IMG/VR virus record: IMGVR_UViG_3300029120_000055
Origin: a virus
Reading direction: 5' to 3' (one strand)
Length of the DNA: 17,260 bases
Shown here: positions 13,200 to 16,668 of the stretch, piece by piece
Layout of the letters: every line of letters starts with the position of its first letter
Numbering within the stretch: the first letter of the stretch is position 1
The notes under the pieces: model-generated
Seen by the model: only the letters and a program-made list of their open reading frames with translations
The model's database searches: none
Told to the model about the DNA's origin: nothing
Program-made: the position numbers and the translations under genes

Positions 13200-13675
13200 T
13201 TACACCTATCCTTTATTTAGATGAGCCACCTGTTGCCGCAGGTGGCTCATCAGGCATTCAGAGAAATGTTGTTCCAGCAACGTCTCTCTGCCAGTTTGTG
13301 AGCCGTATGCTGCAACAGGCGGCTCACGGGTTTGTGAAGCAATGCTTCAGCGACTCACTATATCACTATTTTGGTCGACGGCGTGACCCGCCTGTAATTT
13401 TTACGCTTTCGCGCTGATTTGGAATACCCCTTCACGACTCATTGAGCCGTGCAGCCATTATACTCTCTGAACGTTCTCATGCGAACATGAGCTTCGCTGC
13501 GGATTCCTTTCGGTTCCCGGAGTGGAATTACAAAACCACTCGCCTTTCGGCCAATTTCGGCTGTTTTGCCAATGCTCCCTCACTTGCAACTCACGCTGCA
13601 AGCTCGTTCCGTGTCACCACCAGAGCATATGTGGGCACATCATGAGAACCCGTCATTTTGGGTCTACCCACAGAA
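13200..13675 (-). ncRNA. ORF-less structured RNA, a candidate second group I intron related to the IStron ribozyme (boundaries uncertain)
   Basis: The minus strand at 13506-13456 reads AAUCCGCAGCG-AAGC-[CUCAUG-UUCG-CAUGAG]-AAC-GUUCAGAGAGUAU. This parallels the IStron Q-P6-R block, AAUCAGCAGCC-AAGC-[CCUC-GAAGA-GAGG]-AAG-GUUCAACGACUAU.

An S-like motif, GUGAUAUAGUGAGUC, lies at 13366-13352. Tetraloop helices are GCC-GAAA-GGC (13551-13542), CGC-GAAA-GCG (13413-13404) and CUCAUG-UUCG-CAUGAG (13491-13476).

Two 3' hairpins are present: 8 bp at 13327-13298 and 13 bp at 13251-13220. A possible P7 is CGGCUCA (13449-13443) with UGAGUCG (13357-13351).

The canonical R/S pairing is not clean, so the RNA may be divergent or degenerate. 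Confidence 0.45.
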
Positions 13676-16668
13676 CGAATAAATTGAACACCAAGGACAC
13701 CGGCAGATACCGTGCCAAGCGTTCCAAGGCTCTTCGTGATTGTCTGGATAACGCCAGACATATCCGTCAAGAGGTCAATTACATTCTTAATCGTTCGCGT
13801 ATCATAAAGATTCTGAGCGACACCAACCCAAGTTTCTTTCAGCGCATTCAACTTGAATACGATGGAGTCTTGGGCACGCTCCAACTCTTTTGACGCGCTG
13901 CCAGCAGAACCGGCCATAGCGTCCATAGCATTCTCTGCCTGCTTAAAGTTTGAGATAAGTGCCGCACCGACCTGGGCGCGTTGCTTGCCGAATAGCTTTT
14001 CGAGCAACTGCGCTCGATTTTTATCGCTGATTTCATTCCAGATATCTGCAATATCTTTCAGAATATCATAAGTAGAACGATAAGTGTTTGGATCGTCGGC
14101 CTCAAACAAGCTGATTCCCTGATTATTATTGCTTGCTACTTTCGTCAAGTTAGCAATATCGCCTGTGATTTCCTTGAGGTCATCAGAATATGTTTCAGTT
14201 TCCTCGTCGTAACCTCTCAGGCGCATAGAAATTGTCTTCAAGGCATTGCCGACCTGCGAAGAATCTCTCGTAATCTCCGTAGCCGCAGTAGCCAACGCGA
14301 CAGTCTGCTCAAACGTGTTATTGGCCGCAGCCATTGCGGATGACGATCTAGTAAGTGAATCAACAATATCAGCATTCGATACAGCAAAATTGTTGCCGAC
14401 TTCGTTTATCTTAGAAATAATTCCGTCAAGAGAATCGTTAACGTCCAACTCCTTGAACGCCTTCAGCATACTGACAAGACCATCAGTTGCCTCGGTCAAA
14501 TCAAGATCTTCAGACACCGCAGAGAAAATAGCAGAGTTCCGTGACAACGTAGACGCCTCGTCAAGCGAGTACCCCAGACGTGCCCAGTCTGCTGTCTGCT
14601 GAATGATGTCCTTTGTAGACGCACCGAGTTCCTTAGCAGTCTGGTTCGCCGTATAATAGAAACTGCGATACTGCTCTTCCGTCGCATCAGTCGTTTTCTT
14701 CAGGTCAATAAGCGCATTATCGAGGTCTTTAACAACATCGAATCCCTCTCTGAGCGTTTGCCACGTCTTAAAGATAATAGTTGTTGCGCCAATCCACTGA
14801 GAAACCTTAGCGAGGTTGTTCTTGAAAACATCACCAAGTGATAGTGTATCTTTACCAGCGGCTTTAACCTCAGCGCGGAATGCGCTTAACTGTGCTTTCC
14901 ACTTTGAGAAATCGGCTTGGCTGTTTACACGGCCAAGACTGACTTTCAACTGGTTGAGTTGCGCGTTAAGACCGGGGTCGTTTTTAAGCGCGCTCCACTT
15001 TGTTTCAATCGTGATTAGGTCTTGCTTCGCTTTGGCAAGCCCAGACTCAAAACGAGAATCGGCAACATCAAGCCTCGACAATTTTTCGAAATGCATTACC
15101 TCGGACGTGCAATCCTCTAAAATTTGACGGAGCTTTTCATAAGCGGCTATTTTGCCTTGGTCATCTAGCTTGCCACCGTTAACTGCTTTAAGTTGCCTGT
15201 CCAATTCTGCGATATTTCCAGCGAGTTCTTTTGACGGATTCCCAAGAGCAGAAAACCGTGCCTGAAGTTCCGCAACCTTTTGCGGCATAGATGCCATCTC
15301 TTTATTGATATACGCAACAGCATCTTTTACGCGGCCTTCTGCAACAGCAAGTTCATAGTTTTGTTGGACAATCTTTTCGCCATACTGTGATCGTGCTTTT
15401 GCAGCAGCAACGACTTCTGGCGCAAGATGAGCTTGAGTCGTGATTTCTTGCGTAATTTTTGCTTGCTCTGCTTTAACACGAGCCAGCTCCGTCGCCATAA
15501 TCTGATACTCTTCAGTCCCACGACTCGTTCTGGTCATTTTCTTGCTTATTTGCGTAGCTCTGCCACGAGCTGAAAGCAAGGAATCGTATTTCTGAATAAC
15601 GCCAGCGACCTGAGCATCAAAACTCTTGACCTCAGCACTCAGAGTGCTAAATTGATTAAGATATTTTGTCAATGCGGCTCCATCCGAAGCCCCACTCAGC
15701 TCGTTATGAAGCCTATCAATTCTGGATGCAAAATCTTGCGTCAAATTGCCCACATTTGCGAGTTTTGCTTTATAGGCATCTAACTTGGACAATTCCTCAT
15801 CTCGAATCGTCACAACATCTTTCGTGCGCAACTTTGTCGGAGCGCGCTCTAATGTACGATACGCTTCACCAAGCGCTTTTGCATTGGCAATGAGTTCGAC
15901 GATCTCTCTCTGTTGCTCTCCACTCAGTGCACCGCTTGCAGCTTTAAGTGCATCAATTTTATTGTTGATTTCTGTAACCTTAGCACCAAACGATTCAAGT
16001 CTCGTCTGGTCAACAATCGGTTTCTGCGAACTCTGGCCAGTGTAAGAAGCATTGATTTTATTTATCTCAATTTGCTGTTTTGATAGAAAATTCAAACGAG
16101 ACTGGTTGTCTTTTTCGACCTGCTTGGCTAATGCCGCAGCAGACTTGCGTTGTTGCTCCAAATTGAGCGTAACGTTTGTCATCGTTGTGCTGATTTCTTG
16201 TGTTTCCGCATCATACGTCTGCAAATAAGAAACAGCCTTACCAGTCTCATCTGTCCCCTGAATTGTTAACGCTAAAAGTTGGCGTTCACTATCAGCTACC
16301 TGTTTCCAACTACCACTAACTCTATCAATACGAATGCCCATCTTGTCGATTTGCTCGACCATGCTATTCGTAATTGACGAATCGACGTGCAGGCTACCAA
16401 GTTTCGTTTGCAATTTTGCAATCGACTCTTTGTCTAGCCCCAACTTGACGCCGACTTTATTGGCGGCGACCTTTTGATTGATTTTTTGTACAAATGCACC
16501 TGCCTGCGCACTAACTGCACTATCGTCAAGCGCGATTCCGACTTTGATTTTGCTTGACTGATTTACCTTGTCGGAGATGCTTGGCAGTTGTGCTGCTATC
16601 CGTCTTGATGACGCTTCTTCATCTGCCTCAAGTACACTTGTTACGACAACTTCCAATTCATCGCTCAT
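13591..16668 (-). CDS. Tail tape measure protein (TP901-family core); the 3' end of the ORF reads into the structured RNA
   Basis: ATG 16668 is preceded by GAGGTGG. The first ~640 aa are Ala/Gln/Lys-rich coiled coil. The canonical tape-measure core follows at about 14735-14215: ALIDLKKTTDATEEQY...AKELGAS...LGYSLDEAS...ATDGLVSMLKAF...NEVGNNFAVSNADIVDSL...ATEITRDSSQVGNALKTISMRLRG. Next come ...LFGKQRAQVGAAL... and the hydrophobic LGTLGTVSAGVLGV. The final ~25 codons (GRPKMTGSHDVPTYALVVTRNELAA*) lie in hairpin-rich sequence. Confidence 0.9.
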   Translation of the reverse strand: MSDELEVVVTSVLEADEEASSRRIAAQLPSISDKVNQSSKIKVGIALDDSAVSAQAGAFVQKINQKVAANKVGVKLGLDKESIAKLQTKLGSLHVDSSITNSMVEQIDKMGIRIDRVSGSWKQVADSERQLLALTIQGTDETGKAVSYLQTYDAETQEISTTMTNVTLNLEQQRKSAAALAKQVEKDNQSRLNFLSKQQIEINKINASYTGQSSQKPIVDQTRLESFGAKVTEINNKIDALKAASGALSGEQQREIVELIANAKALGEAYRTLERAPTKLRTKDVVTIRDEELSKLDAYKAKLANVGNLTQDFASRIDRLHNELSGASDGAALTKYLNQFSTLSAEVKSFDAQVAGVIQKYDSLLSARGRATQISKKMTRTSRGTEEYQIMATELARVKAEQAKITQEITTQAHLAPEVVAAAKARSQYGEKIVQQNYELAVAEGRVKDAVAYINKEMASMPQKVAELQARFSALGNPSKELAGNIAELDRQLKAVNGGKLDDQGKIAAYEKLRQILEDCTSEVMHFEKLSRLDVADSRFESGLAKAKQDLITIETKWSALKNDPGLNAQLNQLKVSLGRVNSQADFSKWKAQLSAFRAEVKAAGKDTLSLGDVFKNNLAKVSQWIGATTIIFKTWQTLREGFDVVKDLDNALIDLKKTTDATEEQYRSFYYTANQTAKELGASTKDIIQQTADWARLGYSLDEASTLSRNSAIFSAVSEDLDLTEATDGLVSMLKAFKELDVNDSLDGIISKINEVGNNFAVSNADIVDSLTRSSSAMAAANNTFEQTVALATAATEITRDSSQVGNALKTISMRLRGYDEETETYSDDLKEITGDIANLTKVASNNNQGISLFEADDPNTYRSTYDILKDIADIWNEISDKNRAQLLEKLFGKQRAQVGAALISNFKQAENAMDAMAGSAGSASKELERAQDSIVFKLNALKETWVGVAQNLYDTRTIKNVIDLLTDMSGVIQTITKSLGTLGTVSAGVLGVQFIRSVGRPKMTGSHDVPTYALVVTRNELAA

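Follow-up and report, generated by a model that had tools for sequence, protein, structure and literature searches.

Our analysis of a 17,260-nt stretch of viral DNA (IMG/VR record IMGVR_UViG_3300029120_000055; this whole stretch is referred to as the window) revealed a structured RNA, probably the ribozyme of a cargo-carrying group I intron that splits the gene of the phage tail tape-measure protein (TMP) and whose proposed splicing in cis would join the two TMP exons. The predicted structure identifies the RNA at 13665-13362 of the minus strand, where all relevant genes of the window lie, as a group I-type ribozyme forming the 5' part of an intron predicted to extend from 13665 to 10495 (3171 nt, minus strand). 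A first-pass annotation, made from the letters of the window alone, had described here an ORF-less structured RNA at the end of the TMP gene, where the frame changes within a helix-rich region, and had let the element end near 13200. The end of the open reading frame (ORF) was confirmed, and so was the lack of coding capacity at 13200-13665 (minus strand; ORFs of only 24-47 aa, unconserved), while the position proved to be in mid-gene and the element to continue to 10495 with about 2.7 kb of genes inside it. Coordinates of all features are collected in Table 1.

Judged from sequence comparison, the 1025-aa ORF and the 734-aa coiled-coil ORF located downstream of it are parts of one very long TMP gene. 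The 1025-aa ORF is composed of 1001 codons of exon 1 and 24 codons of the intron; its C-terminus reads ...FIRSVGRPKMTGSHDVPTYALVVTRNELAA (...LGVQFIRSVGRPKMTGSHDVPTYALVVTRNELAA) up to a stop codon at 13593-13591, within the P2 domain of the ribozyme. Two stop codons immediately precede exon 2 in its own frame, and no Shine-Dalgarno sequence is visible ahead of it. Insertion-free TMPs (33-36% identity) can be aligned without a break over the predicted exon 1/exon 2 junction. In 9/9 lineages checked, the intron is positioned after a Gly codon, past the transmembrane segment that follows the TP901 core, and exon 1 ends on this complete codon; exon 2 continues a TMP-like frame in all loci tabulated for the 3' splice site. 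The predicted ligated RNA junction ...UGUGGGU/GCAUCAC... (...UCUGUGGGU/GCAUCACUUAAAG) corresponds to the spliced protein ...FIRSVG/ASLKVLKN..., with the junction peptide SVGASLK (...FIRSVGASLKVLK); the unspliced product would carry the intron-encoded peptide RPKMTGSHDVPTYALVVTRNELAA (read-through peptide RPKMTGSHDVPTYALVVTR). Public databases, in which the 1025-aa product belongs to a cluster of 234 proteins, label it 'TP901 family phage tail tape measure protein'; this annotation takes in the 24 intron-encoded residues and leaves out the remaining gene, and the annotated 'TMP' would be the N-terminal portion of one much longer protein.

The minus-strand sequence 13674-13350 folds better than shuffled sequence (z = -3.4, 0/100 shuffles), and the elements recognized in the ribozyme are P1, P2, P3, P4-P6, P7, P8, P9 and a 3' pseudoknot. 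The 5' domain contains the internal guide sequence (IGS), with which the ends of the exons base-pair. P1, formed by the IGS and the last nucleotides of exon 1, was 100% paired in an alignment of 11 sequences (A5), with an invariant U.G and three covarying positions; its variants across lineages include CUGGGU/GCCCAG, GCGGGU/GCCCGC and CUCGGGU/GCCCGAG. This covariation sets the 5' splice site between 13666 and 13665, after U13666, and cross-lineage conservation begins exactly after ...GGGU, the exon sequences being otherwise unrelated. The first-pass annotation had sought the site further upstream (13680-13760) and had read CUGUGG at 13673-13668 as a P4 strand opposite CCGCAG; the same nucleotides provide the exon side of P1, where they covary with the IGS. 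The strands of the small hairpin P1a are swapped in one locus (L254) relative to the others. In the 5' domain alignment, P2 is 100% paired with compensatory changes in 5/7 pairs, all six pairs of P2.1 covary, and the domain overall is 96% paired with compensatory changes in 17/24 pairs.

Pairing is still more consistent in the catalytic core. In a MAFFT alignment of 10 lineage representatives (A3), 99.5% of cells are paired and 20/39 pairs show compensatory changes, against about 40% pairing in slid controls; the alignment of 59 distinct sequences to the covariance model (A4) gave 99.2% and 24/39, and slid controls for the two alignments ranged from 37 to 44%. P7, which had been left out of the covariance model, was still 98.8% paired among the 59 distinct sequences, and P3 occurs in at least six sequence variants, all of them complementary. 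The helices follow the order P3-(P4-P5-P6)-P7-P3'-P8-P7', the double pseudoknot by which membership in group I is judged. The guanosine-binding site of P7 (G[A]G-A / U-C-C) is found in 58-59 of the 59 distinct sequences at each position and retains the bulged A and, after it, the G:C and A:U pairs, and J6/7 (UUCA), J4/5 (AA) and J5/4 (AAU) are identical to the consensus of the Rfam group I model RF00028; these P7 and junction residues presumably correspond to those of the Tetrahymena ribozyme. The first-pass suggestion of a group I intron-type RNA was thereby borne out by P1 with its U.G, P3/P7, P4-P6, the P7 site, P8, P9.0, P10 and omegaG, with covariation behind them, and several of its assignments had to be moved: the 'S-like' motif GAUAUAGUG is not the 3' strand of P7, which is GUAUUCC; GUGAU at 13366-13362 belongs to the pseudoknot, and the proposed alternative P7 (CGGCUCA/UGAGUCG) is P8. 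In one lineage (L258, ~1575-1690, and L291), an insertion of about 290 nt in the P6 loop divides the covariance-model match in two.

P9 and both stems of the 3' pseudoknot (S1 and S2) were checked in nine lineages with differing sequences, and in a tenth, L254, by eye; the support is a hand-made table, as these segments were not consistently aligned by MAFFT. Conservation across lineages stops at the end of the pseudoknot, about 305 nt past its start. GAAA tetraloops close three helices (hpA, P5 and P9) and a UUCG loop one (P6). The tetraloop, 8-bp and 13-bp hairpins listed by the first-pass annotation all exist; the long 3' hairpins are lineage-specific and lie outside the conserved core. The related locus L036 departs from the window sequence within this region (13220..13349). 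In a close relative (L047), the 6-nt loop of the 13-bp hairpin is reverse-complemented (CGGCAA vs UUGCCG), a flip-flop of the palindrome, and a C-to-U change in its stem still permits G.U pairing on the sense strand.

The 3' splice site is marked by three signals lying far from the ribozyme. The first six nucleotides of exon 2 (GCAUCA, from 10494) are complementary to the IGS segment UGAUGU and would form P10, whose exon strand reads ACAAUCA, AUAUUC, ACAUU or GCAAUUA at other loci. P9.0 changes in a compensatory manner across lineages (AAUC/GAUU, CAUC/GAUG, AGAC/GUCU, AAUCC/GGAUU), and omegaG directly precedes exon 2. The joint presence of omegaG, a P10 of 5 bp or more and a P9.0 of 4 bp selects the frame-restoring site in 8/8 loci (~6 independent lineages) and is the sole such site in 7/8 of them, with a chance expectation of 0.04-1 site per locus; P9.0 played no part in choosing the sites. 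Homology between the window and a bacterial-chromosome copy of the zinc-ribbon gene carried in the intron ends 42 nt short of the 3' splice site, which assigns the terminal hairpin, P9.0 and omegaG to the intron. The introns of the different loci are 1171 to 3987 nt long; a compact, covariation-supported ribozyme with an altered P3-P4 junction must, on this prediction, capture a 3' splice site 1-4 kb away. A docking of the terminal-hairpin loop on the ribozyme (UUUGGUCG with CGACCAAA in the window) was considered and dropped, because the loop GACCA of the related introns termed L-type is constant and its proposed partner varies (by eye). The P10-complementary exon motif is duplicated inside some introns, as GCAAUUA directly after the ribozyme in L232 (+331) and as G/GCAUCAU near 10516 of the window, 21 nt before the real 3' splice site and within the terminal hairpin; such copies might act as decoys or as alternative 3' splice sites, or might be left over from cargo acquisition.

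The RNA belongs to a family of related sequences. By blastn, one unannotated faecal phage scaffold matched the window, its TMP 'ending' with ...GEPKMTG... in a different reading frame. A 22-nt core motif was present in 76 IMG/VR viral contigs, and our covariance model R1 recovered 80 copies (59 distinct) that fall into about nine lineages, the divergent ones (L240, L259/L309, the L232 group, L258, L254, L134) having been reached by a second motif scan and nhmmer. A 16-mer scan of genome contigs gave mostly chance matches in GC-rich genomes, with L134 and L155 alone being real. The phages appear to infect gut Clostridia (Oscillospiraceae, Peptococcaceae and Clostridiales metagenome-assembled genomes). 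Past the 5' splice site, the lineages are separated by frame-shifting indels, so the conservation lies in the RNA and not in a protein. The first-pass annotation had held that protein conservation through VTRNELAA in related phages would speak for ordinary coding sequence; this expectation failed on the indels and on uninterrupted homologues that lack the stretch. Literature searches returned no description of this intron family.

The standard detector of group I introns, RF00028 (Intron_gpI), found 0/10 member loci. The same search had been named in the first-pass annotation as a check on its suggestion, and the lack of an Rfam match formally counts against it; we ascribe this outcome to RF00028, since the miss reflects insensitivity of the model and not absence of the intron. 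Two AT-rich phage contigs (L256, 7008-7134; L287, 11429-11573) carry canonical-looking, unannotated group I introns whose P7 and J7/9 are of the same unusual sequence (CAGAGAGYAUAAUG ... GGUGURYUCCAAAC) and which are likewise missed by the Rfam gathering threshold; unlike the TMP introns, they have a canonical P3-J3/4-P4 (UGCUGG), a large P5 extension and no hpA or hpB. RF00028 therefore seems blind to a wider subclass. As it misses a widespread intron family of gut Clostridia phages, public records truncate the TMP genes.

On this evidence we propose the following course of events. A late transcript would run from exon 1 through the entire 3171-nt intron, and P1, with the U.G at the splice site, would arise from pairing between the IGS and the final 7 nt of exon 1. 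Exogenous guanosine would dock at the bulged-A/G:C site of P7 and cleave after U13666. The distant 3' end would be drawn in by P9.0 (AAUC of J7/9 with GAUU) and by P10, in which the IGS nucleotides beside P1 pair with the initial 6 nt of exon 2; omegaG10495 would then be attacked and exon 1 ligated in frame to exon 2. The 2.7-kb interior would act as a cargo bay for accessory genes with promoter-like sites of their own, and a prophage could therefore express them without destroying an essential late gene. The prediction is directly testable, as the exact junction and the helices P1, P10 and P9.0 are specified.

Several observations weigh against this proposal. RF00028 gave no match in the window at gathering score and none at E <= 10 in 12950-13950. 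In place of the short single-stranded J3/4 and 6-bp P4 expected of group I, the ribozyme has two hairpins in J3/4, which is atypical for group I introns, and a P4 shortened to CGGG/UCCG; P4 never varies, and therefore covariation gives no test of it. All other structural hallmarks of the group (P1 with U.G, the double pseudoknot, the P7 site, omegaG/P9.0/P10) are present, and the RF00028 score and a canonical J3/4 are the two that are lacking. With only about nine lineages, the independent covariation events are few, and the tables for P10, P9.0 and the 3' pseudoknot come from hand-extracted segments. The transcript must cross 2.7 kb of cargo, convergent antisense transcription and a strong hairpin (11309-11336). 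The frame of exon 1 stays open through the IGS and P2 for 24 intron codons, and translation into an intron can inhibit splicing, according to a reference cited in PMC4227781 (its reference 74). Finally, no intron-less allele, junction-spanning protein or spliced sequence was found in IMG/VR, JGI metagenomes or a set of 5.8 billion proteins.

This last result also speaks for a different reading of the conserved fold, in which the 3.2-kb element is not removed in cis, the TMP is made as two polypeptides (the 1025-aa product and a separately translated C-terminal part) and the RNA is kept for a different role, for example to cleave at the 5' site alone, to process the transcript or to regulate the cargo genes. 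The public annotation of the 1025-aa ORF as a complete TMP, a possible TTG start at the beginning of exon 2, a weak promoter-like site shortly before the 3' end (10558-10529), and the cargo with its own promoters and antisense gene agree with it. We nevertheless consider it unlikely, for P10 and P9.0 covary with exon 2 and the intron 3' end in about six independent lineages, which makes sense only with the 3' splice site in use; moreover, exon 1 always ends on a complete codon with exon 2 always in frame, exon 2 lacks a Shine-Dalgarno sequence, and uninterrupted TMP homologues are single proteins. That the region encodes protein in the usual way and then passes into a structured 3' UTR or terminator, with the 734-aa ORF as a separate tail gene, would fit the open frame reaching to 13591 and the silence of Rfam; it is scarcely credible in view of the frame-shifting indels within the 'coding' tail, the covariation that backs a pseudoknotted group I core, and the uninterrupted TMPs that span both ORFs.

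A complete IStron interrupts exon 2 of the same gene. IStrons of the CdISt1 and BcISt1 type (Tourasse et al. 2014, PMC4227781; Zedaveinyte et al. 2023, bioRxiv 10.1101/2023.11.20.567912) combine a ribozyme of IA2 type, having P7.1, P7.2 and P9.0-P9.2, with an insertion sequence (IS) part of the IS200/605 family (PMC4227781). The TMP intron shares with them the layout of a 5' group I ribozyme, a kilobase-scale coding insert and a distant 3' splice site in a protein gene of Clostridia, and the first-pass annotation had aligned 13506-13456 with the IStron ribozyme almost block for block and considered a tnpB-less IStron relative. The similarity is real, the IStron ribozyme (8175-8090) being the second-best match of R1 in the window (11.3 bits, E ~0.02); it arises because the shared P4'-P6-J6/7 segment is generic group I consensus (AAUCCGCAGC..AAGC..GUUCA). 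Descent from an IStron whose tnpB and IS part were lost, so that a related ribozyme now accompanies other genes, is in our view very improbable. RF00028 scores the IStron at 79.7 bits and does not match the TMP-intron ribozyme, which lacks P7.1 and P7.2 and has a 6-nt J8/7, two J3/4 hairpins and a pseudoknot after P9. Its insert consists of variable, partly antisense accessory genes; no TnpA, TnpB or omega-RNA remnant lies inside 13665-10495, and OrfB_IS605, Y1_Tnp and RAGATH gave no match there or in the cargo of related loci, so that the IS part defining an IStron is missing. Besides, the copies occupy one homologous TMP site in 9/9 lineages, unlike transposing IStrons, which lie at scattered sites.

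Table 1. Features of the split TMP gene, its intron and the neighbouring IStron in the window
Feature	Position	Strand	Description
TMP ORF	16668..13591	minus	1025 aa; TP901-type PhageMin_Tail core, Pfam PF10145
TMP exon 1	13666..16668	minus	1001 codons, end ...GVQFIRSVG (GGU)
P1 and surroundings	13630..13672	minus	alignment A5 covariation
P1 strands	13672-13666 / 13636-13630	minus	exon UGUGGGU / IGS GCCCACA; U.G at splice site
P1a	13663-13648	minus	small hairpin in L1 (P1 loop); ACCC/GGGU
P10 guide	13642-13637	minus	UGAUGU, directly 5' of IGS part forming P1
P2 domain	13572..13628	minus	AUGCUCU/GGAGCAU; encloses near-invariant GGUGGUGACACGGAAC and variable hairpin P2.1
Catalytic core	13417..13567	minus	alignments A3, A4; R1 158.5 bits here
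P3	within core	minus	CAGCCG/UGGCUG
hpA, hpB	J3/4	minus	two extra hairpins between P3 and P4, both covarying
P4-P5	within core	minus	CGGG AA CC GAAA GG AAU CCG
P6	within core	minus	UUCG loop
J6/7	within core	minus	UUCA
P7 5' strand	13465-13460	minus	GAGUAU, as G[A]GAGUAU with bulged A; covaries with 3' strand
P7 3' strand	13427-13421	minus	GUAUUCC; covaries with GAGUAU
P8	within core	minus	CGGCUCA/UGAGUCG
J8/7	within core	minus	GAAGGG, 6 nt between P8 and P7 3' strand
3' domain	13362..13419	minus	J7/9, P9, linker, pseudoknot
J7/9 (P9.0 5' strand)	13419-13416	minus	AAUC, pairs with distant GAUU
P9	within 13362..13419	minus	GCGC-GAAA-GCGU
A-rich linker	between P9 and pseudoknot	minus	AAAAAUUA
H-type pseudoknot	S2 3' strand 13366-13362	minus	S1 GGCG/CGCC, S2 GUCAC/GUGAU; 9-lineage table
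Four lineage-specific hairpins	13220..13349	minus	window-type loci only
8-bp hairpin	13298-13327	minus	lineage-specific
13-bp hairpin	13220-13251	minus	perfect, lineage-specific
Cargo region	10534..13219	both	~2.7 kb, ribozyme to 3' splice site
Cargo ORF	13199..13029	minus	56 aa
Cargo ORF	13042..12788	minus	84 aa, also in L-type cargo
Promoter-like site	ahead of 346-aa gene	minus	TTGACC-18-TATAAT; promoter scan
Membrane protein	12622..11582	minus	346 aa
Terminator-like hairpin	11309-11336		promoter/terminator scan
Zinc-ribbon gene	10610..11302	plus	230 aa, antisense to TMP
Intron 3' end	10495..10533	minus	terminal hairpin, P9.0, omegaG
Terminal hairpin	10533-10503	minus	counterpart in all 19 distinct 3' ends
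P9.0 3' strand	10499-10496	minus	GAUU, pairs with J7/9 AAUC
omegaG	10495	minus	directly before exon 2
Coiled-coil ORF	10497..8293	minus	734 aa, ~3 kb past 1025-aa ORF
TMP exon 2	8317..10494	minus	726 codons, begins GCA UCA CUU (ASLKVLKN...)
IStron	8326-6570	minus	complete, interrupts TMP exon 2
IStron ribozyme	8326-7895	minus	Rfam Intron_gpI, 79.7 bits
IStron TnpB	7821..6682	minus	379 aa
IStron RAGATH-18	6638-6578	minus	Rfam search

The interior of the group I intron is a multi-gene, fast-swapping accessory locus with promoter-like sites of its own and an antisense gene; no sense-strand terminator-like site was seen within the intron in the scan. Cargo differs even between 97%-identical ribozymes (L311 and L036 compared). 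Among the recurrent modules of related loci are a 110-aa coiled-coil protein, an 82-84-aa protein, membrane proteins, a retropepsin-like aspartic protease with a weak match to PADLOC PDC-M08B, a PemK/MazF-like toxin and an antisense 111-116-aa protein. Beside the 3' end in nearly all lineages stands an antisense gene for a 155-240-aa protein with a C-terminal zinc ribbon, which is the sole cargo of the smallest introns (L240, L232, L258) and is missing from L254. This protein gave no informative match in Pfam, PHROGs, PADLOC, a PDB sequence search or Foldseek, and its model (predicted local distance difference test, pLDDT, 78.7) had no PDB fold match. The window's own cargo genes were without endonuclease, transposase or defence-library matches, and LAGLIDADG, GIY-YIG, HNH, His-Cys box and PD-(D/E)XK domains were not matched in Pfam, PHROGs and PADLOC searches.

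A 100%-identical zinc-ribbon protein is encoded in a bacterial chromosome (L312, 6001-6693, and L313; ENA contigs of 514 kb and 448 kb), with a PFOR gene on one side, a convergent SocA_Panacea and RelA_SpoT (toxSAS) pair on the other, and no ribozyme nearby. The gene and its promoter thus seem to travel as a module beside toxin/defence genes. In L-type introns, a sigma-70-like promoter directly follows the pseudoknot, and an antisense promoter-like TTGACT-17-TATA(A/C)T is present at 15/15 distinct 3' splice junctions (L007, L008, L011, L013, L015 and ten others), its -35 box lying in exon 2 (conserved codons K-S-M/I) and its -10 box within the final 8-13 nt of the intron. If cargo expression were coupled to the splice site in this way, mutual regulation of cargo transcription and splicing (even trans-splicing, started from an internal promoter) would be conceivable. 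Tentatively, and with less confidence than in the intron itself, we raise the idea that this group I lineage serves as a gene-cassette platform, by which temperate gut phages carry toxin/defence-type genes expressed in lysogeny inside an essential late gene, exchange the cassettes with bacterial chromosomes and couple cargo expression to the splice site.

To our knowledge, group I introns other than IStrons carry at most a homing endonuclease gene as cargo. Phage introns of this kind, as in T4 td, nrdB and sunY, SPO1 and Twort (review PMC3984707), resemble the TMP intron in the interruption of an essential phage gene, the P1/P10/P9.0 logic and a protein gene in a peripheral intron region; by contrast, no endonuclease domain was detected in the TMP intron, which accommodates as many as 5-6 genes under promoters of their own (the commonest one is antisense and without recognisable fold), and no empty sites were found. 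The cargo is more reminiscent of phage morons and accessory hotspots in its variable genes with own promoters, its toxin-like and candidate defence genes exchanged between close relatives, and the identity of one cargo gene to a chromosomal copy beside a toxSAS-Panacea pair. Morons normally lie between genes, whereas this hotspot is inside a coding sequence, which is tolerable only if the RNA is spliced. This suggests that a self-splicing RNA can be a safe harbour for phage morons within coding sequences.

The one TMP gene of the window thus bears two different group I-derived elements. Homology between the window and the relative L311 breaks at 8317, where the IStron cuts off exon 2, and the exon 2 ORF of L311 comprises 1668 aa; L311 has no IStron at this site, but a 94%-identical tnpB copy upstream of its own TMP. 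In L134, an Oscillospiraceae contig, a tandem glycine riboswitch (5387-5564) is located about 2 kb downstream of the intron and is probably unrelated host sequence.

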